From positions 192,001-256,000 of the forward strand of contig JBDTZG010000001.1 of assembly GCA_040005235.1 (NCBI GenBank): a stretch of 64,000 nt of DNA, written 5' to 3'. Under the pieces are notes generated by a model that was not told where the DNA came from, ran no database searches, and worked only from the letters and a program-made list of their open reading frames with translations. The DNA is from Acidobacteriota bacterium. Its GTDB lineage: Bacteria; Acidobacteriota; Thermoanaerobaculia; Multivoradales; UBA5704. Positions 3,001 through 40,415 of the stretch are shown in pieces. Position 1 is the stretch's first letter. Every line of letters begins with the position of its first letter. The position numbers and the translations under genes were made by a program.

Positions 3001-6000
3001 CCTGCAGGTGAAGATCCGCGGCTTCCGCATCGAGCTGGGGGAGATCGAAGCGGCATTGACCGCGCACCCGAGCGTGCGCGAAGCGGTGGCGGTGGTGCGG
3101 GGCGACGGGGACGACCGGCGCCTGGTCGCCTACCTGGTGGCACCTCCGGACGCGCCGTTGGCCAGCTTCGAAGCGGAGCTGCGCGAGCACCTGCGCGCGC
3201 GCCTGCCGGAGCACATGCTGCCGTCGTTCCTGGTGCCGCTCGCCGCGCTGCCGCTCACCCCGAACGGCAAGGTGGACAAGAAGGCGCTGCCCGCGCCGGA
3301 GATCGACCTCGGGGGCGGGTTCACCCCGCCGGGCACGCCGCTCGAACTTCGCCTGGCCGAGATCTGGGAACGACTGCTCGGCGTCGCGGGCGTCGGCCTC
3401 GAATCCGATTTCTTCGCGCTCGGCGGCCACTCGCTGCTCGCGATGCGCCTGTCGTCGCACGTGCGCGAGGCGCTGGAGCTGGAAATCCCGGTCACCCTGG
3501 TGTTCGAGGAGCCCATCTTCGGCGCGTTCGCTCGCACGGTCGAGGGAATGATCGAAGGATTGGGCGAGGGGGTGGGCGGGACGGCCGGAAAAGCGGCTCG
3601 CAAGGCGCTCGACGCCACCTCCGCCGAGCCGGCGCTCGTCGCCCTCGCGCGCACCGGGCCGGTCGCGCTCTCCTACTCGCAGACGCGGCTTTTCATGTTC
3701 GACCGGCTGCGCCCCGGAGACACCCTTTACAACATGGGCGGCACGCAGCGCCTGGGCGCGCGGCTCCGGCTCGACCTGCTCGCCGCGGCCATCGACCAGG
3801 TGGTGCGCCGGCACGAATCGCTGCGCACGGGCTTTTCCGAGATCGACTCCCATCCGGTCCAGATGATCCACCGCGAGGTCGAGGTCCGGCCGCGGCTGAT
3901 CGATCTTTCCGCTCTCGCGCTCAGCCGATCGCCGGAACCCGAGATGGTGCGCCTGAGCGCGCTCCAGGTCGGCACTCCGTTCGATCTCGGCCGGCCGCCC
4001 CTTCTGTCGATCTGGCTGGTCCGGCTCGGTGCCGCGGGCGACGTCCTGCTCTACATGATGCACCACATCATTTCGGACGGCTGGTCGATGGGCGTTCTGG
4101 TCTCCGAGCTTTCCGCGGCCTATGAGGCCTTGGCGGCCGGCCGATGGCCCGACCTGCCGGCGCTGCCGGTGCAATATCCCGATTACGCGGTCTGGCAGCG
4201 CGACTGGTTCGAGCGCGGCGAGCTCGCCCGCCAGCTCGGCTACTGGCGCGAACGACTGGCCGGAGCGCAGCCGAGCGAGCTGCCGACGGATCGCAAGCGT
4301 CCGGCGGTGTCGAGCTTCCGCGGCAGGCGTTTCCGCACGGCGCTCGACAGCGCGACCTCGAATGCGCTCCTGGCGCTCGCGCACGATCACCGCGCGTCGA
4401 TCTTCATGATGGTGCTCGCCGGTTTCGACGCGATCATCGCCCGCTGGTCGGGCCGCGACGACGTCGTCGTCGGCTCGCCGATCGCCAACCGCCAGCGGCG
4501 CGAGATCGAGGGATTGATCGGCTTCTTCGTCAACACCCTGGTCCTGCGAACCGACCTTTCCGGCGATCCAAGCTTCGCCGAGGCGCTCGACCGGACCCGC
4601 GACGCGGCGCTCGGCGCGTTCGGCCATCAGGATCTGCCGTTCGAGCGCCTGGTCGAAGAGCTGGCGCCGCGCCGCGATCCGGCGCGCCATCCGCTGTTCC
4701 AGCTGCTGTTCAACCTGGTGAACACACCGAGCGAGACCTCGGCCAAGGGCTCTCCCGGGTTCACCGCGGAGGCGGATTCGCCGGCTCCTGAGCTGCAGTC
4801 GGCGACCGCGCTGTTCGACCTCCAACTGTTCGGGATCGAGACCCCCGGATCGATCCAGCTGGTCTGGGAGTACTCGCTCGACCTGTTCGAGGAGGCCACC
4901 GTCCGGCGTTTCGCCCGGGGCTTCACGAGCCTGCTCAAAGGTGCTCTCGCGCGGCCGGAGACCCGCCTCTCCGAGCTGCCGCTCCTTTCGGCCGCCGATC
5001 GGATCGAGCTGCTCGCCGCCGCCGCGGGGCCAAGCTCGAACCCGCTTCCCGACCATTTCCTTCACCAGCGTCTCGCCCGCGAGGCGGCGGCTCGACCGGA
5101 TGCCCCGGCGGTGCGGTTCGGCGGCCGGGTCGTGACCTACGCCGAGCTCGATGCCGCGTCGAACCGCGTGGCGCGCCACCTCCAGGCCCTCGGCTTCGGC
5201 GTGGAGCTCACGGTCGGCCTCTGCTTCGATCATTGCCCCGAGCTGCTGTTCGCTCTGTTCGGCGTGCTCAAGGCGGGCGCTTCCTTCCTGCCCTTGGACC
5301 CGGGTTACCCGGAAGAGCGGCTGTCGTATCAGATCGCCGACTCGGGTACTTTGGCGGTGCTCACCGACGAGGCGAACGAACCGCTCGCCCGGCTGCTCGG
5401 CGCGCCGCTGGTTATCTGCGTCGACGGCCCGGAGGTTGCGGGCGAGAGCGCGGAGGCGCCGGCGCCGGAAGGGTTCGAGCCGGAGCGCGCCGCCTACCTG
5501 CTCTATACCTCTGGATCGACCGGGCGGCCGAAAGGGGTGGTCGTCACCCATCGCGGCCTCGCGAGCCTGGGGGTCGAGCAGGGCCGCCTGTTCGGCGTCG
5601 CGCCGGAGGGTCGCGTGCTGCAGTTCGCCTCTCCCGCGTTCGACGCCTCGGTCTCCGAGATCGCGATGGCGGTCGAGGCGGGCGCCGCGCTGGTCATGGC
5701 GCCGCGCGAGGTGCTGTTGCCCGGCGCCGACTTCATCCGGCTGCTCAAGGACGAGCGGGTGACCACCGCGACGCTTCCTCCCTCCCTGCTCGCCACCCTG
5801 CCGGCCGGAACGGAGAGCGAGCTGCCGGACCTCGCCAACCTGATCGTCGCGGGCGAAAGCTGCCAGCCGAAGCTCGCCGCCCGATGGGCGGCAGGCCGGC
5901 GATTCCTCAATGCCTACGGGCCCACCGAGACCACCGTGTGCGGCACGGTCGCCGACCTGTCCGGCGCGACGCTCTCGGCCGATCGTCCGTTGCCGCTCGG

Positions 6001-9000
6001 CCAACCGCTCGCCCACGTCCAGGTCCGGGTCGTCGATCGCTGGTTCGAGCCGGTGCCGGTCGGCACTCCCGGCGAGATCGTCATCGGGGGCGTTGGCCTG
6101 GCCCGCAACTACCACGGCCGGCCCGATCTCACCGCCGAGCGCTTCGTGCCCGATCCGCTTGCCGGCGGGGAGGGCGACTCGCCGGGAGGCCGGATCTACC
6201 GGACCGGCGACCTCGCTCGCTGGCGGCCGGAGCCCCGGCAGCCGACCGGCCTCGACCTCGAATACCTCGGCCGGATCGATTTCCAGATCAAGATCCGCGG
6301 ATATCGCGTCGAGCTGGGGGAAATCGAGGCCGCCTTGACCGCTCACCCCGAGGTGCGCGAGGCGGTGGTGGTGGTCAAGGGCGAGGACGACGACCGGCGG
6401 TTGATCGCGTATCTGGCGGCGACACCTTCCCCGACCCTCGAAGCGGAGCTGCGCGAGCATCTGCGCACGATCCTCCCCGAGTACATGGTGCCGGGACGCT
6501 TCGCGATGCTCGCCGCGTTGCCCTTGACCCCGAACGGCAAGGTCGATCGCAAGGCGTTGCCGGAGCCCGGAGTGGAGCTGGTGGAGGGGGTCACCCCGCC
6601 GCGGACGCCGGTCGAGCGGCGCCTGGCCGAGATCTGGGAAGAGCTGCTGGCGGTCTCGGGCGTCGGGCTCGAATCCGCGTTCTTCGAGCTCGGTGGACAT
6701 TCGCTCCTCGCGATGCGATTGACCTCGCGCATCCTCGAAGGGTTGGGTCTCGACCTGCCGATGCAGGCGATCTTCGACGAGCCGACGCTCGAATCGTTGG
6801 CGGCCCGGATCGAAACCGGGTTGAAGGAGAGCCAAGGCGGGGTTGCCGCGCCCGCGCTCCTGCCGCTGTCGCGCGGCGAGGCGCTGCCGCTGTCGTTCGC
6901 GCAGACCCGCCTTTGGATGCTCGATCGCCTGCTTCCGGGCGGGTCGCTCTACAACATGGGCGGCCTTCAGCGTTTGGGGAGCGGTCTCCGTTTCGACCTG
7001 TTCGCCGCGGCGATCGAGATCGTGGTGCGCCGCCACGAGACGCTGCGCACGAGCTTCGACGAGATCGACCTGGCGCCGATTCAGATCATCCATCCGGAGG
7101 CCGCGGTGCGGCCCCGGCAGATCGACCTCGCCGCGCTCGCCGCGGGCGAACGCGAAATGCTGCGGCTCGGCGCGCTCCAGCTCGCCCAGCCGTTCGACCT
7201 CGGCCGGCCGACGCTCCTGCGCCTCTGGCTGGTCCGGCTCGCGACCGAGTCGGTGCTCCTCTACGTGATCCACCACATCGTCTCCGACGCCTGGTCGATG
7301 GGCCTCCTGATCTCGGAGATCACCGCGGCCTATGCCGCGCTCGCCGAAGGGCAGAGGCCGGACTTTCCCGAGCTGCCCATCCAGTACGCCGACTTTTCGG
7401 TCTGGCAGCGCGCCTGGTTCGAGGGCGGCGAATTGGACCGCCAGCTCGGCTACTGGCGGACCCAGCTCGCCGGCCTGCCGGCGACCGAGCTGCCCGTCGA
7501 CCGGCCGCGCCCGCCAGTGTCGAGCTACCGCGGCCGGCGGTTCCGCACCGCGCTCGCCACGGACGTCGCGGCCGCCCTCGGCACGCTGGCGCACGAGCGC
7601 CAGGCCTCGGCGTTCATGGTCCTGCTCGCCGGCTTCGACGCTCTGGTCGCCCGCTACGTCGGCCAGGACGACGTCGTCATCGGCACGCCGGTTGCGAACC
7701 GTCGCCGCCGCGAGGTCGAAGGGCTGATCGGATTCTTCGTCAACACCCTGGTGCTGCGCACCGACCTCGACGGCGACCCGAGCTTCGCCGAGGCGGTCGA
7801 TCGGACGCGGGAGACCGCGCTCGGCGCCTTCGCCCACCCGGATCTGCCTTTCGAGCGCCTGGTCGAAGAGCTGGCGCCGCATCGCGACATGGCGCGGAAC
7901 CCGCTGTTCCAGCTGATGTTCAACCTGATCGGTTCCTCTCAGGCCGAGGCGGGCGAACGCTCCGCCAAGTCTCCCCGGGATGTCGGATCTTCGCCGGCCC
8001 AGGACGCGACGGCGCTGTTCGACCTGCAGGTCTATGGGGTCGAAACCTCCGACTCGTTCGATCTCCATTGGGAATACTCGGTGGACCTGTTCGAAGAGGC
8101 GACGATGCGCCGCCTCGCCCGGGGTTATGAGTCGCTGCTCGCCGCCGCGGTGGCCCGGCCGGAATCGCGCCTGTCGGATGTTCCGCTCCTCTCCGCTGCG
8201 GAGCGCGCCGAGCTGGTCGCCGCCGGCACCGGTCGCGCGGCGGGCGCGAGCGGCCGGGTTCACGAGCGGATCCGCGAGCAGGCGGCGGCAACGCCCGCTG
8301 CGATCGCCTTCGCCGCCGGTTCCGACACCCTCACCTACGCCGAGCTGACGGCGCGGGCGAACCGGCTCGCGCGGCGCCTCGCCCGCCTGGGCGTCGGCGT
8401 CGAGTCGCGCGTCGGCATCGCGGTCGAGCGTTCGCTCGCGTTGCCGGTGGCGGCCCTGGGCGTGCTCGGTGCCGGCGCCTCCTACGTGCCGCTCGATCCG
8501 GCCTATCCGGCGGAGCGGCTCGCCTACATGGCCGCGGACGCCAGGCTCGCGGCGCTGGTCGTAAGCGGCGATCTGGAGGATCTCGATCGGCGCTTTGCCG
8601 CCTACGCGCCGGTCGTGGTGAGGATCGCGCCGGATGGCGAGATCGACGGCGCCGAGCTTTCGACCCCGTTGCCCTCCCGGGTCGGGGCGGAAAACCTGGC
8701 GTACACGATCTACACCTCGGGCTCAACCGGTCAGCCGAAGGGGGTCGAGCTGTCGCACGGTGCCCTCGCCAACTTCTTGGACGCGATGATCGAGCGTCCC
8801 GGCGTGGTCGCCTCCGACGTGCTGGTCTCGGTCACTTCCCTGTCGTTCGACATCGCGGGTTTGGAGCTGTACGCGCCGCTCCTGGTCGGGGCGCGGACCG
8901 TGATCGCGCGGCGCGACGAGGCGACGGACGGCAGCCTGCTCGCCGCGCTGCTCCGGCGGAGCGGCGCCACGGTGCTCCAGGCTACCCCTTCGGGTTGGCG

Positions 9001-28135: not shown

Positions 28136-28861
28136 TTAGTGGGTGGTCCGCTGCCGCATCAGAAGAGCGGCGGCGCCGAGGGCGAGGAGACCGAAGACGA
28201 AGACCGCCGGTTCGGGGCTGGCCGTCTGCGGCAGGCTGGTGTCGTTCGCCATAGTGTTTTTAGACGCCATGGTGTCGTTGGCCATCTTATCGTTGGCCAT
28301 GGTGTCGTTTGCCATCGTGTGGTTGGTGTCCATCGTGTCCGCCGACTTGTCCATCGTGTCGTTCATCGGCGCGGCGGCCGTGGTGCCCATCGTCGAATCG
28401 GTCGTCGTTTCCATCGCCCGGTTCGGGTCGTTGGGCTGCATCGGCTTGGCCGGAGCCTGGTAGCCGCCGGTGGTGCCCACCACGGTCGAGCGAGATTCGC
28501 CCGTCTGGCCATTCGTGCCCGGCGTACCGGTGTTGGTCAGAGTGCGGGTCGTCGTGCCGCCCGGTTTCGCGGGGGCCGCCGCCTCGGTTCCTTCAACGAC
28601 CTGGACGGCCTGGAAACCGCCGGTATCCAAAGCATGGTAGACGACGGTTACCTGATCGCCCTCGGAAACAATCGCCGGCTTCGAGGTCGCCGAATCCATC
28701 ACCAGATTCAGGCGGGTGCCGGCGTCGGTCTGGACCACCAAGTCGAACGCGGAAGACGAGATCACGCGCCCCGAGACCGTTTTGTTCATGGTTTCCTGGG
28801 CGTAGGCGGCAGCTCCGACGGCGAGGACGAGGCAGAGGAATAGGTTCGATATGCGCTTCAC
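28136..28861 (-). CDS. Sortase substrate with LPQTA motif and Met-rich pentapeptide repeats
   Basis: GTG start with AAGGAGG RBS, signal peptide, small beta domain, (T/K)MAND repeats, LPQTAS + hydrophobic segment + basic tail RQR. Confidence 0.88.
   Translation of the reverse strand: MKRISNLFLCLVLAVGAAAYAQETMNKTVSGRVISSSAFDLVVQTDAGTRLNLVMDSATSKPAIVSEGDQVTVVYHALDTGGFQAVQVVEGTEAAAPAKPGGTTTRTLTNTGTPGTNGQTGESRSTVVGTTGGYQAPAKPMQPNDPNRAMETTTDSTMGTTAAAPMNDTMDKSADTMDTNHTMANDTMANDKMANDTMASKNTMANDTSLPQTASPEPAVFVFGLLALGAAALLMRQRTTH
28238..28366 (-). repeat. Intragenic 15-bp repeats encoding TMAND-type pentapeptides
   Basis: MNDTMDKSADTMDTNHTMANDTMANDKMANDTMASKNTMANDT. Confidence 0.85.
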
Positions 28862-35332: not shown

Positions 35333-36079
35333 GTGCAAGAGACGAGCAGCGCCCAGACGCCCCACGAGGTCTTACCCGCCTACTACGGCTCTTCCGCGGA
35401 GCGCCGCCCGTTCGTTCGCCGCCTGTTCGACGACGGCGCGCCGTACTACGAGAAGATCAACCGCTGGATGTCGTTCGGGACCGGAGTGTTCTACCGGAAG
35501 GATGCGCTCCGGCGGGCGGGTCTCACCGCGGGGATGAAGGTGCTCGACGTGGCGACCGGCACGGGAGTCGTAGCGCGCGCGGCGCTCGAATTGGTGGGAC
35601 CCGCGGGCAAGGTCATCGGGCTGGATCCGAGCGCCGGCATGCTCCACGAAGCGGAGCGCATCCCCGGTCTCCGCTGTGTGCGCGGCTTCGCCGAAGCGCT
35701 TCCCGTGGCCGATCGCAGCGTCGACTTCCTAAGCATGGGCTATGCCCTTCGGCACGTCGCGGACCTCGCCGCCACCTTCATCGAATACCGCCGCGTCCTC
35801 CGCGCCGGAGGGCGCCTGCTGATCCTGGAAATCGTCCGGCCGAAGAACCGGCTGACGCTCGCCTGGATTCGCTTCTACTTGAAAAGCCTGGTCCCCTGGC
35901 TCACCTCCATGGGATCCCGCGAAGCGCGTACGATGATGGAGTATTTCTGGGACACGATCGATGCCTGCGTCCCGCCGGAAGCGATCCTCCAGGCGCTCGA
36001 ACAAGCCGGCTTCGCCGATGTCCGGCGCGTGGCACAGTGGGGTTTTCTTACCGAGTACCAGGCGCGGCGGGTGGACTGA
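35333..36079 (+). CDS. Class I SAM-dependent methyltransferase (UbiE/MenG-like)
   Basis: VLDVATGTG, GLDPSAGML, MGYALRHV, RVLRAGGRLLILE. GTG 35333 has a GGAGG RBS. Confidence 0.88.
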   Translation: MQETSSAQTPHEVLPAYYGSSAERRPFVRRLFDDGAPYYEKINRWMSFGTGVFYRKDALRRAGLTAGMKVLDVATGTGVVARAALELVGPAGKVIGLDPSAGMLHEAERIPGLRCVRGFAEALPVADRSVDFLSMGYALRHVADLAATFIEYRRVLRAGGRLLILEIVRPKNRLTLAWIRFYLKSLVPWLTSMGSREARTMMEYFWDTIDACVPPEAILQALEQAGFADVRRVAQWGFLTEYQARRVD

Positions 36080-36348
36080 GCTTCCGCTCGAAAGCCCGCT
36101 CAATTTTCTTGCGAACCCCATCGATCGAAAGGGCGGCCCGGAGCGGACCGCCCTTTCCTACTGTTCCATGGGAAGGGTCGGTCAAGTCGCGCGGGGGGCA
36201 TCCCTCCGACGCAGGAACAACGTTCCCAGAACGACGAGCAAGAGGATGAGCACTCCGAGGCCCCAAGGTGTTGTTGCGAGAATGTTAGCACGAGAGGTCA
36301 GCTGGACGTAGCCGCAACCGGATTTCGGCCTCGGGATCGATCTGCACC

Positions 36349-36394
36349 TTGCACTACTCAGGACGTTGAGTAAAATTACTCAGCGTATTGAGTA
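36349..36394 (+). promoter_or_regulatory. sigma70 promoter overlapped by two TACTCA-N6-TGAGTA operators
   Basis: TTGCAC (36349)-N16-TAAAAT (36371). Palindromes at 36355-36372 and 36377-36394; the second covers the TTG start. Confidence 0.75.
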
Positions 36395-37599
36395 ATCCGT
36401 CGATGCCCTTCACTCGCCCACAGAGCGCTGTTCTGGCGCGCCGCCTCCGCGAACCGCGCCGATTGGTAATCGTCGTGGCGGGGCCGCGACAGGTCGGGAA
36501 GACCACCCTGGTGCTGCAAGTTACCGAGGCCTCGGGCCTCGTGACGCGCTACGCGAGCGCGGACGAGCCCACGCTTCGGGGTTCGTCTTGGCTGGAGCAG
36601 CAATGGGAGGCCGCGCGTCTCTCGGCCGTCGAGGCCGGAGGGCGCGGCGCCGTGCTGGTTATCGACGAGGTCCAGAAGCTCACCGGCTGGTCCGAGACCG
36701 TCAAGCGGCTGTGGGACGAGGACACCCGCGCCAAGCGCCGCCTTCGGGTAGTGCTTCTCGGCTCGGCGCCGCTGCTGATCCAGCAGGGCCTCACCGAGAG
36801 TTTGGCGGGGAGGTTCGAGACGCTCTATCTACCGCACTGGTCGTTCTCCGAAATGCACGACGCGTTCGGCTGGAACGTCGAGCGGTATATCTACTTCGGC
36901 GGTTACCCGGGTGCGGCACCTCTCGCCCGGGAGCCGCAGCGATGGGCGCGCTACGTCCTCGACTCGTTGATCGAAACCACGATCTCGCGCGATGTCCTGC
37001 TCATGTCCCGGGTCGACAAGCCAGCCCTGCTGCGGCGGCTGTTCCAACTCGGGAGCAGCTACTCCGGCCAGATCCTCTCGTATACCAAGATGCTAGGGCA
37101 GCTCGCGGACGCCGGAAACACCACGACGCTTGCGCACTATCTGGACCTTCTCGGAGGGGCAGGAATGCTGGTCGGACTGCCGAAGTTCGCGGGCGAGGTG
37201 GTGCGGCAGAGAGGGGCAAGCCCGAAACTTCAGGTGCTCAACACGGCACTGATGACCGCCCCATCGGGGCTCTCCCCGAAACAGGTGCGCGCGGACCGCG
37301 AGCTGTGGGGCCGGCTGGTCGAATCGGCCGTCGGGGCACATCTCGCGAACGCCGCCGCAGCGGGGATTTGCGAGCTGTTCTATTGGCGGGAGCGCGATCG
37401 GGAGGTGGACTTCGTCGTCCGGCGCGGGCGATCGCTCACTGCGATCGAGGTCAAGAGCGGCACGAATCGCGAAGTCCCCGCGGGCCTCGAAGCGTTTGCA
37501 GCCGCCTACCAACCGAAGCGCTCGCTTCTGGTCGGCGGCGACGGCATCCCGCTCGAAGAGTTCCTCGGCAAGCCGGTGGAGCATTGGGTCCCGGCCTGA
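36388..37599 (+). CDS. AAA_14 ATPase with DUF4143 / PD-(D/E)xK-like C-terminus
   Basis: GPRQVGKTT, IDEVQK, LLGSA, ESLAGRF, GGYPG, EVDFVV...AIEVKSG. Confidence 0.92.
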   Translation: MSNPSMPFTRPQSAVLARRLREPRRLVIVVAGPRQVGKTTLVLQVTEASGLVTRYASADEPTLRGSSWLEQQWEAARLSAVEAGGRGAVLVIDEVQKLTGWSETVKRLWDEDTRAKRRLRVVLLGSAPLLIQQGLTESLAGRFETLYLPHWSFSEMHDAFGWNVERYIYFGGYPGAAPLAREPQRWARYVLDSLIETTISRDVLLMSRVDKPALLRRLFQLGSSYSGQILSYTKMLGQLADAGNTTTLAHYLDLLGGAGMLVGLPKFAGEVVRQRGASPKLQVLNTALMTAPSGLSPKQVRADRELWGRLVESAVGAHLANAAAAGICELFYWRERDREVDFVVRRGRSLTAIEVKSGTNREVPAGLEAFAAAYQPKRSLLVGGDGIPLEEFLGKPVEHWVPA

Positions 37600-37619
37600 G
37601 CTCCGAGCCTTCGATGTGC

Positions 37620-38205
37620 TCGATGGCGAACACAAACCGCACCGTGTTGAAACTCAAGAGCGCAACCGCGACTCGAAGAACGAGGCCGGGAACGCCGCGT
37701 GCCGGCGCCCGGAGTTGCGAGGGACCAGCCGAAAACCGCGCACCGATCGGCGGTTTCCGCGCCCCCGTGCGGCGAACGCAGCTCCCGGTCGCCGAGCGCT
37801 GCGATCTGGGTGCCGAACGTTGGGCGGCGCAGCGCGAACGCTGCGCACAGGTGCGCGGACGCTACGCACCGGAATTTCGAACGCAAGAAGCGCAACGCAG
37901 AGCGCGAGCGCCGCTCTGCCGAACACAAGTGCTGCTACGCCGAGCGCAAGATGTGGCGCGCGACGTCCCGGAAGCGGTTCGCCGCGCGCGGGGACCCGTC
38001 CCCGGCGTCCGGAACGCAGCGCTTTGTGTTCCCGGCGCGCACGGTAGCGTTCGAAATCCAGGTCGTTGCGTTCGCGCACCTGTGCGTTGCGTCCGCGTAC
38101 CGGTGCATTGCGTTCGTGTCGTGCCCGGTTGCGTTTGGCCACCGGGAAGGTGCGTTCGCGAAGCGGGTCCGGAATGTCGGGCAGCGGGCCGTCGTTTTCG
38201 CGTAG
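37620..38205. repeat. Head-to-head 21-bp-period degenerate array forming a long imperfect inverted repeat
   Basis: GAACGCA-like cores at 37774, 37794, 37815, 37836, 37857, 37879, 37900, 37921, 37942. Reverse cores (TGCGTTC-like) end at 38031, 38052, 38073, 38094, 38115, 38136, 38157. About 37833-37886 is an imperfect reverse complement of about 38045-38096. Confidence 0.85.
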
Positions 38206-38208
38206 CGG

Positions 38209-39405
38209 TCAGCCCACGGCGGCAACCACCTCCCGCACGTTCGCGCCCTCTTCCGCCACCCGATCCAACGCCCGTTCCAGATCGTCCAGCAGGTCGCGCA
38301 CGTCTTCCAGTCCCACCGACAGGCGCAGCAGCTCCGACGTGATCCCGGCCCGCGCTCGCGCCTCTTCGCTCATCGCGGCGTGGGTCATGGTCGCCGGGTG
38401 GGCGATCAAACTCTCCACACCGCCGAGCGATTCGGCGAGGGTGAAACAGGCGAGCCCTTGGACGAAGCGCTCGACCGCGCCCGGGAGGGGATGCAGCTCG
38501 AAGCTCACCATCCCGCCGTAGCCCGCCTGCTGCCGTTTCGCGATCTCGTGCCCCGGATGGTCGGAGAGGCCGGGATAGTGGACCCGGGCGACGCCTGGCT
38601 GCTCGGCGAGGAACGCGGCCACGGCGCGGGCGTTTTCTTCATGGACGCGCATCCGGGCAGAAAGTGTGCGTAGGCCGCGGAGCGTGAGGTAGCTGTCGAA
38701 CGGCGCGCCGGTTAAACCGACCGCATTGGCCCACCAGCCGAGGCGTTCCAGCAAGGCCGGATCTTTCGCCACCACCGCGCCGCCTACGACGTCGCTGTGA
38801 CCGTTCAGATATTTGGTGGTCGAATGGATCACCAGATCGGCGCCGAGCGCGATTGGTTGTTGGAGAGCGGGGGAGAGGAAAGTGTTATCGACGGCCACCC
38901 GGGCGCCGTGCGCATGAGCCAACGCGGCGAGCCGGGTGAGATCGTAGATCCGCAATAGGGGATTGGATGGGCTTTCGATCCATACCCACGCCGGGCGCCG
39001 GGCGAGCGCTTCGCCGAGGGCCGCCGGGTCGCCATAATCGACGAAATCGACGTCGATCCAACCTTTTTCCGCATAGTGGCGCAGCAGGCGATAGGTGCCG
39101 CCGTAGCCGTCGTGCTGGGCGAGCAGCCGATCGCCGGGGGAGAGCAGATGGAGCATCAGGGCCACGGCGGACATGCCGCTCGACGTGACCACCGCGCCCG
39201 CGCCCCCTTCGAGCGCCGCGATCGTCTCGCCGAGCTGGTCGCGGGTAGGGTTCCGGGTCCTTGAATACTCATAGGCGCCGGGCCGTTTGAAGCCGGCAAA
39301 CGCGTAGGTCGCCGAAAGCGTGATCGGCGGCATCACGGCGCCGGTCGTCGGATCGGAACCGATCCCTGCGCGAACCGCGCGGGTGGTCGAACGGAAGGCG
39401 GTCAT
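38209..39405 (-). CDS. metB: Cystathionine gamma-synthase
   Basis: YEYSRTRNPT, SSGMSA, ESPSNP, VDNTF, HSTTKYLNGHSD (PLP Lys), AESLGGVESL, RLSVGLE; met operon context. Confidence 0.92.
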   Translation of the reverse strand: MTAFRSTTRAVRAGIGSDPTTGAVMPPITLSATYAFAGFKRPGAYEYSRTRNPTRDQLGETIAALEGGAGAVVTSSGMSAVALMLHLLSPGDRLLAQHDGYGGTYRLLRHYAEKGWIDVDFVDYGDPAALGEALARRPAWVWIESPSNPLLRIYDLTRLAALAHAHGARVAVDNTFLSPALQQPIALGADLVIHSTTKYLNGHSDVVGGAVVAKDPALLERLGWWANAVGLTGAPFDSYLTLRGLRTLSARMRVHEENARAVAAFLAEQPGVARVHYPGLSDHPGHEIAKRQQAGYGGMVSFELHPLPGAVERFVQGLACFTLAESLGGVESLIAHPATMTHAAMSEEARARAGITSELLRLSVGLEDVRDLLDDLERALDRVAEEGANVREVVAAVG

Positions 39406-40415
39406 CGCGCCACCTCCGCGAGATCCGAGCGGACGATCGCGCCGATCGTCTCCTCTTCTTTGAGGAACGCGTCGTGGCCGTAGCGCGTATCGATTTCGAT
39501 CAGTCGAACCGGTCCGGCGATCCGCCCCGCCAGATCGCGGATCTGCTCGACCGGCACCAGCTCGTCGGACGTGGCGGCGACGAGCGTGACCGGTGAGCTG
39601 ATCTTTTCCGGTTCTACCCTATGCAGGTCGATCGCGAGCGACAGCGAGAGGAACGCCTCGGGGAAAAAGCGCGAAGCGAAATCGCGACCGCGCGCTTCGA
39701 GATAAGACTCCACCGCGAAACGCGCCCTGCCTTCGAGCACCGTCGGCGGATCGGTGAACCGCTCGGCCAGCTCGCGCCGGCTGCGATAGGTGGTGAGCGC
39801 GAGGCCGCGCGCCAGCTCCAAGGCTTCCGGCCCTTCGCCGTGCCGGCTTCCCAGCTCGACGATCCGCCGTTGAATGCTCCGCCAGGCGGAGGCGTGCGGA
39901 TGGCTCTCATGCGCCGCGGAGATCGCCGTCACGCCGCGGAGCCGCTTGGGGGTGAGGGCGGCAAACGCCAGGCCCACCATGCCGCCGTACGAGGCGCCGA
40001 CGAAGCGATCGATCGTTTCGATTCCCAAGTCGTCGAGCAGCGCGAGCAGCGCCCGCGCCTGGTCTTGGGACGAGACGATCGGAAACTCGCTCGATGAATC
40101 CGCGCCCCGCGCCGGCCCCGAGGAGGCGCCGATTCCGCCGAGCCAGTCGGTCGAAAGAACCCGACAACGGTCGGTGTCGATCGCGCGTTCCGGGCCAACC
40201 ACCCCCTGCCACCAGCCCGGGGAAGGATCAAGGCTCGTTGCGGTGACGTGGCGGCCGGCGGAGATCCCTCCTTGCACCACCACCAGCGGCGCGTCGGGCG
40301 GCCCGGTCAGCTCGAACGCGAGCAGCCCGGAACGGAGTGCGCCGCCATGCTCGAGCGGAAATTCGAGCGGCAGATGGTACAGGCCGGTTCCCGCCGTGAT
40401 CTCGACCGCGCTCAT
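39402..40415 (-). CDS. metX: Homoserine O-acyltransferase (alpha/beta hydrolase; acetyl vs succinyl not determinable)
   Basis: GGISAG, GWWQGVVG, GASYGGM (Ser), SDELVP (Asp), YGHDAFL (His). Translationally coupled on both sides. Confidence 0.9.
   Translation of the reverse strand: MSAVEITAGTGLYHLPLEFPLEHGGALRSGLLAFELTGPPDAPLVVVQGGISAGRHVTATSLDPSPGWWQGVVGPERAIDTDRCRVLSTDWLGGIGASSGPARGADSSSEFPIVSSQDQARALLALLDDLGIETIDRFVGASYGGMVGLAFAALTPKRLRGVTAISAAHESHPHASAWRSIQRRIVELGSRHGEGPEALELARGLALTTYRSRRELAERFTDPPTVLEGRARFAVESYLEARGRDFASRFFPEAFLSLSLAIDLHRVEPEKISSPVTLVAATSDELVPVEQIRDLAGRIAGPVRLIEIDTRYGHDAFLKEEETIGAIVRSDLAEVAR

Follow-up and report, generated by a model that had tools for sequence, protein, structure and literature searches.

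Facing arrays of 21-bp units at gene ends: a previously undescribed repeat family in Acidobacteriota with putative protein-binding cores

Within a 64,000-nucleotide stretch of an Acidobacteriota genome (the window; NCBI GenBank assembly GCA_040005235.1, contig JBDTZG010000001.1, positions 192,001 to 256,000), the 609-bp gap between a gene for a DUF4143 ATPase and a converging gene for a pyridoxal phosphate (PLP) enzyme is a dyad from end to end, built of two facing series of 21-bp units. This element belongs to a previously undescribed repeat family that is non-coding and lies at gene ends. What might such an element do? Our leading explanation, to which we commit only tentatively, is that the family consists of arrays of putative protein-binding sites that share one face of the DNA and lie downstream of genes. 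Positions are those of the window unless a contig is named; G000 denotes the source genome, other G-numbers its relatives, C-numbers contigs and L-numbers fetched loci.

The left arm of the window copy carries nine GAACGCA-type cores on the plus strand (37774 GAACGCA, 37794 GAGCGCT, 37815 GAACGTT, 37836 GAACGCT, 37857 GGACGCT, 37879 GAACGCA, 37900 GAGCGCG, 37921 GAACACA and 37942 GAGCGCA). Laid out in a 21-nt register, these cores are separated by steps of 20, 21, 21, 21, 22, 21, 21 and 21 bp, such that the one 20-bp step is later compensated by the 22-bp step, and weaker cores lie farther out at 37628 and 37690. The right arm carries seven cores in the inverted orientation (38025 TGTGTTC, 38046 AGCGTTC, 38067 TGCGTTC, 38088 TGCGTCC, 38109 TGCGTTC, 38130 TGCGTTT and 38151 TGCGTTC), and every one of its steps is exactly 21 bp. 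This direct reading agrees in both coordinates and counts with the initial annotation of the sequence, which had described at least nine cores at 20-22 bp followed by at least seven inverted cores at exactly 21 bp. A repeat search of the element recovered a four-copy direct family with spacings of 21, 21 and 42, along with inverted arms of 63 nt that are 71% complementary, and Tandem Repeats Finder reported only two short period-21 pieces (37891-37950 and 38064-38116). The element is not an assembly artifact, since the independent genome G003 has a syntenic copy that is 86-88% identical.

Copies of the element occur elsewhere in the source genome and in its relatives. A pattern of three CGAACGC cores at exact 21-bp spacing with at most two mismatches matched 22 times in the 6.2-Mb genome of G000, compared with no matches for the control, which was the same pattern reversed. 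Among the 41 relatives searched, G002 gave 35 matches against none for the control and G003 gave 32 against one. All seven of the other genomes of the genus had matches, of which those in G001 and G005 may be due to chance, and clear dyads are present in a second genus (G018 and G008). The 17 nhmmer matches in G000 all fall within four loci (Table 1), and C66:39887-39923 in the same genome is a remnant whose middle has been deleted. The proposal in the initial annotation of an unrecognized family of elements at gene ends is therefore borne out, with four loci in G000 and more in congeners.

Searches that reached beyond the genus returned a broader range of arrays. With the pattern restricted to at most one mismatch, matches were found in 21 of the 92 genomes searched from the bacterial family. 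Among these matches, those in G074 and G008:C310 are plainly coding coiled-coil repeats, and G061, G083, G086, G092 and G094 contain long arrays in one orientation that share the core and differ in their spacers. A scan of genome contigs for three exact cores matched at least 120 stretches, and a scan of metagenome contigs for four exact cores matched at least 120 loci (L179-L298), most of them in a single orientation and one of which (L186) looks coding. Viral contigs gave 55 matched stretches, and the clusters listed from them included no clear dyad of the window type (one, L311, has the order '++---'); a BLAST search with the element gave no match in a plasmid collection of 72,556 records or in a phage collection.

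Two arrays of other genera differ in their details. On G013:C3 (L019), from another genus of the bacterial family, about 16 units of GAYCGCGTTCAAAGTCRTTYT at ~1260-1830 are followed by CCGTCCG recurring roughly each 21 or 42 bp as judged by eye; from this locus, phased 21-bp arrays may be a wider habit of the bacterial family. In a further genus, G024:C28 (L007) has a single-orientation array at ~1470-1770 with a period of ~84 bp, equal to four 21-bp slots, in which every second slot has CGAACGC, at 42-bp intervals, and one of the two slots left has CGAAGGC. The G024 array may be a related type.

The architecture of the family was examined in 24 fetched loci together with the window, which yielded 26 clusters of at least four cores, or 25 after one small intragenic cluster was set aside. 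A forward block followed by a reverse block was found in 19 of the 25 clusters, and two more have the same form preceded by two reverse cores. The remaining four are single-orientation, and no cluster had only the reverse-then-forward order. Each arm is an ordered series of roughly 7-10 units of 21 bp, with the forward arm reading CGAACGC and the reverse arm GCGTTCG. The unit consensus is CGAACGC-WACGMACCGGTKCG, in which positions 1-7 are near-fixed apart from purine transitions at positions 3 and 6; the unit is a conserved 7-nt core (CGRACRC) with a 14-nt spacer. By eye, homology between the two arms runs unit for unit from their outer ends toward the center, and copies at different loci present the unit types in a common order. 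Family copies likewise have an outer TTGCGACGCAA-type motif and a short central hairpin, which in the centers of paralogous elements is of a similar short CCGCTTCG / CGAAGCGG type (also by eye).

The family keeps its genome position across species. The window copy is orthologous in position to G003:C23, the C7 copy to G003:C16 and the C18 copy to G003:C61, and the C42 copy has counterparts at G003:C22, G006:C96 and G004:C154. Likewise, G002:C19 corresponds to G003:C37 and G002:C9 to G007:C33, and copies at orthologous sites span two to four species. Length differences between species amount to complete units: the copies of G000 and G003 differ by 42 bp, and a difference of 21 bp is seen in G006. 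Sequence changes are unevenly distributed within the unit. Between G000 and G003, 3 of 112 core sites changed compared with 23 of 196 spacer sites, which is about four-fold fewer changes in the cores (Fisher p = 0.005). Four more orthologous or homologous pairs gave the same contrast (6/97 versus 38/269, 8/105 versus 114/407, 13/91 versus 98/366 and 23/105 versus 135/385, cores before spacers), and a fifth further pair did not (8/98 versus 39/350, p = 0.46). Spacers differ between G000 and G003 by 11.7%, a value near the 15.4% by which third codon positions of the PLP enzyme gene differ. At the nucleotide level, purifying selection acts on both the cores and their spacing, and the spacers, at a fixed length, drift almost neutrally.

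Table 1. Features of the element, its neighboring genes and the other copies in the source genome (window coordinates unless a contig is given)
Feature	Position	Strand	Remarks
Whole element	37600..38208	.	Occupies the entire gap, with converging genes on either side; the orthologous copy of G003 aligns over 37611-38208 at 86-88% identity
Left arm, outer part	37611..37773	+	Degenerate cores CGAACAC 37627 and GGAACGC 37689; local palindromes; kept in G003
Left arm	37774..37948	+	Nine GAACGCA-type cores; G003 lacks two units (42-bp gap)
Dyad center	37949..38024	.	Short local palindromes, e.g. 37968-38005
Right arm	38025..38157	-	Seven TGCGTTC-type cores (GAACGCA on the minus strand)
Right arm, outer part	38158..38208	-	Weak core 38193; ends 3 nt short of the PLP enzyme stop codon; one additional unit in G003
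DUF4143/AAA_14 ATPase gene	36388-37599	+	Left neighbor; stop adjoins the element
Cys/Met-metabolism PLP enzyme gene	38209-39405	-	Right neighbor; stop adjoins the element
Loci in G000	C118 (window copy); C18:426-790; C7:200-700; C42:41390-41900		Local scan and nhmmer profile

A short conserved core, near-neutral spacers of fixed length and an exact period of two helical turns together fit protein sites on one face of the helix. In the explanation that we tentatively prefer, the cores would be the recognition sites of a sequence-specific protein that binds at every second turn of B-DNA (21 bp = 2 x 10.5), placing all of its sites on one face, and the two arms would be two converging arrays of this protein. 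Owing to the two-fold symmetry, polymerases or forks arriving from either side would meet the same order of sites. Given this symmetry and the occurrence of the element only downstream of at least one gene, we infer a job at gene ends that is independent of direction, which may be stopping or insulating transcription or handling supercoils between genes. Two physical readings of the element had been offered at the outset, and the evidence leans toward the one that presents sites on one helix face and away from the other, a long double-stranded RNA or cruciform maintained by selection.

A more specific version of this idea, which we think rather improbable, is that the protein polymerizes on CGAACGC cores two turns apart and that the converging arrays make up a symmetric nucleoprotein barrier where genes end. 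This barrier might be a roadblock to transcription in both directions, an insulator of supercoils or a compact trap for replication forks. If that is the case, it would be a bacterial counterpart of the Tus-Ter traps or of the protein-dependent terminators that are repeated behind the rRNA genes of eukaryotes. In the same improbable reading, the recurrence of the phased core with different spacers in several genera may reflect a cis code common to the lineage, with arrays that arise and vanish as units slip.

The placement of the copies speaks for arrays of protein-binding sites with some reservation, and several other observations weigh against this explanation of the family. Genes around the arrays were called with a crude open reading frame (ORF) rule based on long ORFs with high third-position G+C, which gave 18 loci with both neighbors called, some of these neighbors more than 1 kb away. 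Seven of the 18 loci lie between converging genes and 11 between co-directional genes. The absence of any locus between diverging genes (0/18) overstates the evidence, because the gene calls are crude and several of the loci are orthologous to one another, and placement at the 3' ends of genes is accordingly only suggestive. No gene common to the array flanks was found among the 43 flanking ORFs scanned, and neither these ORFs nor the neighbors in the window include a gene for a binding protein such as Rep, ParR or ParB. A scan of 36200-38600 for promoter and terminator consensus sequences found no promoter-like site and one terminator-like site, outside the element; the absence of a canonical terminator between the converging genes, the placement at gene ends and the very stable fold of the element fit a role at the RNA level equally well. 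On one metagenome contig (L243), sixteen TGCGTTCG units followed by sixteen GAACGCA units of 21/22 bp occupy 1312-2091 between two same-strand genes. The core and period of this array are as in the window and the polarity of its arms is the opposite, and arm polarity may therefore not be essential across lineages.

The exact period must also be read with care. Among the 256 distances between neighboring cores on the same strand, an exact multiple of 21 occurs in 198 cases, a deviation of one in 21 and some other value in 37, a count that is partly a matter of ascertainment given that the loci were picked by a pattern requiring CGAACGC at two 21-bp steps. The right arm of the C42 copy (~4690-4800 of L177, which is G000:C42:37000-46000) contains five near-identical 21-bp units (GGTGCGGTCGCCAGGCGGGTC) where the orthologs in G003, G004 and G006 have diverged units, which suggests that units expanded recently in the G000 species. 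The exact 21-bp spacing could be in part a legacy of such unit-length slippage and not of helical phasing. A final difficulty concerns the reading frame of the GCGTTCG strand that reads GCG-TTC, in which only one stop occurs among 1148 codons over 164 units compared with 12.1 expected from the position frequencies (P = 7.5e-5).

An alternative that we consider possible, though doubtful, is that the element acts as RNA or as a cruciform. Read-through transcripts would fold the two arms into a long imperfect hairpin that ends or stabilizes transcripts arriving from both directions, a role that has been proposed for repetitive extragenic palindromic (REP) sequences and bacterial interspersed mosaic elements (BIMEs) as stabilizers of mRNA, and the cores may then be sites for an RNA-binding protein. 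The predicted fold is indeed very stable, with minimum free energies of -341 kcal/mol for the plus strand and -322 kcal/mol for the minus strand and z-scores of -4.78 and -4.30 for RNA, and the z-score of the DNA fold is -5.29. None of 20 shuffled sequences folded as well, and the comparison of fold and shuffles that the initial annotation had suggested thus places the element ahead of 20/20. The element is moreover the sole sequence between its two converging genes, where no canonical terminator was found, and no copy was placed between diverging genes. Dyad symmetry is the rule in the genus, and the opposite polarity of the L243 dyad would be tolerable for a hairpin.

The pattern of substitutions does not favor a hairpin maintained by selection. 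When the predicted fold of one species was scored on the sequence of the other (G000 and G003), 151 pairs were unchanged, 27 of the 39 single changes broke a pair and 12 of the 39 kept it, and one double change was compensatory; three reciprocal or opposite-strand tests gave similar counts. The best 84-nt ungapped match of a left arm to the reverse complement of a right arm averaged 50.3 within elements and 49.2 between elements. Since the arms of one element match each other no better than they match arms of other elements, they do not co-evolve, and their complementarity is a consequence of both arms being built from the same units. A hairpin alone would also require neither a conserved core nor an exact 21-nt spacing. 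A permissive Rfam scan of 36000-40000 returned only GlsR27, at E = 0.61 and 20 bits compared with a gathering score of 100. Small hairpins inside the units show weak covariation, with the best pair complementary in 0.46 of units versus 0.32 expected. The RNAalifold result was not counted as an independent test because the program selects the pairs that survive.

It is also possible, but in our view unlikely, that the family is a decayed non-autonomous mobile element of the foldback or MITE (miniature inverted-repeat transposable element) type. The arms would then be long terminal inverted repeats made of phased transposase-binding sites, and the present copies would be old, immobile insertions. 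The unit-by-unit homology of the arms is in keeping with such an origin, and the order of units shared by different loci implies that the whole dyad must once have spread as one piece. The copy number also varies among congeners, from few or none at the stringency of the pattern in G001 to 35 pattern matches in G002, and several copies are found at contig ends or breaks in synteny. The element does have terminal inverted repeats, as a MITE would, in the form of arrays of 150-250 bp and not as short termini.

The signs of mobility that might be expected from such an element were not seen. No transposase, integrase or Rep family was present among the 43 flanking ORFs, which also lacked Par proteins, and the 11 Y1_Tnp matches in G000 are all at least 18 kb from the nearest array. 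By BLAST, identity between copies at different loci is 66-79%, which indicates no recent burst, and the search for insertion boundaries gave neither a target-site duplication nor a clean empty site. In G001 and G004 the PLP enzyme gene is followed by other genes, and the G002 loci have rearranged or missing flanks in G000. In the sole case of presence and absence, G003:C37 versus G000:C66, ~350 bp are deleted from the interior and the two outer ends are retained. Neither the plasmid nor the phage collection gave a match. Furthermore, copies at orthologous sites keep conserved cores, which selection for transposition would not maintain.

A separate repeat was noticed on G000:C114 (L355), where ~120-bp copies at 197-311 and 914-1032 flank a 156-codon Y1 transposase gene (Y1_Tnp at 444-782). 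This repeat is found on at least eight other contigs, among them C18 (6135-6251) and C118 (117370-117486, outside the window). Together with its Y1 gene it looks like a system of the REP type with a REP-associated tyrosine transposase (RAYT), and it is separate from the 21-bp arrays.

The period of 21 nt invites a coding explanation, in which each arm is read outward from the center on the GCGTTCG strand, in the frame GCG-TTC, as a small heptad-repeat protein (Ala-Phe-x5). In the window this frame runs for 84 codons from an ATG at 37952 to a TAG at 38203-38205. Along with the scarcity of stops in this frame that was noted above, its G+C content by codon position is gene-like (~0.65/0.54/0.77, calculated by hand from the unit frequency table). 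Two 184-codon frames are open across the element in G000, ORFs of 189 and 168 aa cross the G003 copy, and arrays of other genera with the same core lie in long open frames with high third-position G+C (0.87 in G061, and 0.84 over a 474-codon stretch in G086). The other two frames of the GCGTTCG strand have 38 and 5 stops over the 164 units.

The substitutions nevertheless make this explanation very unlikely. The 70 substitutions between the G000 and G003 elements fall 22/28/20 over the three phases, a test that covers all six frames, compared with 17/19/61 over the codon positions of the PLP enzyme gene. Taken alone, the right arm of the window copy gave 7/8/6, and the distribution was flat in five further orthologous or homologous pairs. 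Pooled over six pairs and 46 units, the spacer rate in the Ala-Phe frame is 0.239 at first, 0.237 at second and 0.273 at third positions, and core positions that would be synonymous are conserved as much as the others. The frames of the CGAACGC strand each carry eight stops over the 164 units, the ATG at 37952 is an ACG in G003, the 20- and 22-bp steps shift the frame inside the left arm, and neither 184-residue frame has a Pfam match. We conclude that the element is not translated under selection, and a conserved heptad ORF, which the initial annotation had named as an explanation that could account for the period, does not apply to a sequence whose substitutions lack codon periodicity.

The idea in the initial annotation that an operator, the DUF4143 ATPase gene and the array, which adjoin one another in the window, form a self-contained cassette can be set aside almost entirely: G003, the closest relative, keeps the operator and the array without the 1186 bp at 36425-37610 that hold the ATPase ORF, G004 has an orthologous ATPase gene behind the same operator with no array within 900 bp downstream, only 1 of the 13 DUF4143 matches in G000 adjoins an array and only 1 of its 4 arrays adjoins a DUF4143 gene, and the flanks of 22 other arrays hold unrelated housekeeping genes. 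The association with DUF4143 genes that such a cassette had been expected to show is absent, and the element is independent of the ATPase gene, which removes a false lead.

The comparison with G003 that separates the element from the ATPase gene also bears on the history of its flanks. G003 matches the window at ~91% identity on both sides of the missing segment, with 36350-36424 running straight into 37611. The stretch at 36350-36424, upstream of the ATPase gene, contains operator-like palindromes (two dyads of the TACTCA...TGAGTA type) that are 98.7% identical in G003 despite the loss of the ATPase ORF, and the same sequence precedes the ATPase ortholog of G004. On the other side of the element, G003:C23 (L031) has ~4 kb (3195-7168) between the element and the PLP enzyme gene that are absent from the window. 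This segment contains a gene for a DUF805 protein and two further ORFs, one of 812 codons that has FAD_binding_4 and methyltransferase domains and one of 364 codons without a Pfam family. The loss of the ATPase gene on one side and the ~4-kb difference on the other indicate that genes are gained or lost on either side of the element.

How does the family compare with known repeats? CRISPR arrays were considered and rejected, as only 7 nt are conserved per 21-nt unit and the units form two inverted blocks, compared with the identical repeats of at least 23 nt and unique spacers of a CRISPR array. The view in the initial annotation that the element is not a CRISPR, REP or simple variable-number tandem repeat is upheld. 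REP clusters and BIMEs of Enterobacteria and Pseudomonas consist of imperfect palindromes of 20-40 nt that occur in tens to hundreds of copies per genome, extragenically at the 3' ends of genes, with a RAYT (Y1 transposase) gene. BIMEs have been described both as sites that bind proteins and as elements that stabilize mRNA (PMC3733652, PMC2817692). Like these elements, the family is extragenic and non-coding, lies at gene 3' ends or between converging genes, and has short opposed motifs that can fold. Unlike them, its unit is a non-palindromic, direct 7-nt core with a 14-nt spacer phased at exactly 21 bp; its motifs stand in one block per orientation and do not alternate; there are four to five loci per genome as opposed to hundreds; and copies occupy the same sites across species with no associated Y1 (RAYT-type) gene, the nearest being 18 kb away.

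Iterons at plasmid origins and arrays that resemble centromeres, parC of plasmid R1 among them, have units of ~20 bp at whole helical turns, with conserved cores and variable spacers. The family shares with them units of about 20 bp at whole-turn spacing (the 198 of 256 distances given above), conserved cores, variable spacers and the use of both orientations. In contrast to those arrays, its copies are spread over several places in the chromosome amid housekeeping genes, none of them, the window copy included, has a rep or par gene for a neighbor, and the plasmid records gave no match. The nearest kinds are REP/BIME elements with respect to placement, opposed motifs and the binding of proteins, and iteron or centromere arrays with respect to phasing; membership in both fails on their defining features, because the family has no palindromic unit, a low copy number, no RAYT gene and no rep or par gene.

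Other resemblances are more distant. The foldback transposons of Drosophila have long inverted arms of tandem sub-repeats around a short center, and are eukaryotic, mobile and variable in arm length. The family has similar inverted arms of sub-repeats and a short center, but showed no sign of mobility. The fork traps Tus-Ter and RTP-Ter and the Sal-box terminators behind rRNA genes are oriented protein sites that face one another or are repeated behind genes and act on replication or transcription. The oriented, facing blocks of the family may be likened to them as a functional analogy, and there is no sequence similarity. The BOX elements of Streptococcus pneumoniae and a minisatellite-carrying MITE of Porphyromonas gingivalis are interspersed, intergenic and foldable, with an internal tandem module of variable copy number (PMC3049150, PMC4596501). 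The family is likewise interspersed, intergenic and foldable with tandem units of variable number, but the BOX elements and the MITE have distinct end modules and many similar copies, whereas in the family the whole arm is a phased array and the copies are few and old, with cores selected at fixed sites.

Some features of the surroundings remain to be mentioned. The neighbors of the 22 other arrays include, for example, genes for CMD, GDP-mannose dehydratase, DUF362, cupin, M23 peptidase, EF-P, GGDEF, transhydrogenase and FtsX proteins. Elsewhere in the window, at 28237-28326, Tandem Repeats Finder reported 2.9 copies of a 30-bp tandem repeat that has a sub-period of 15 bp and 78% matches.

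Interspersed extragenic repeats are well described in Proteobacteria and Firmicutes. Literature searches, followed as far as listings and abstract openings, returned nothing similar for Acidobacteriota. The family described here joins features that known families do not have together, namely a short core kept by purifying selection, phasing strictly at two turns, arms that face each other, few copies per genome and retention at the same sites across species. This combination points to a cis-acting signal that is read by a host factor rather than to selfish DNA. If the arrays are indeed a signal for a host factor, they would provide a handle on how these bacteria end or insulate their transcription units, and an array would serve as a defined bait for the factor.

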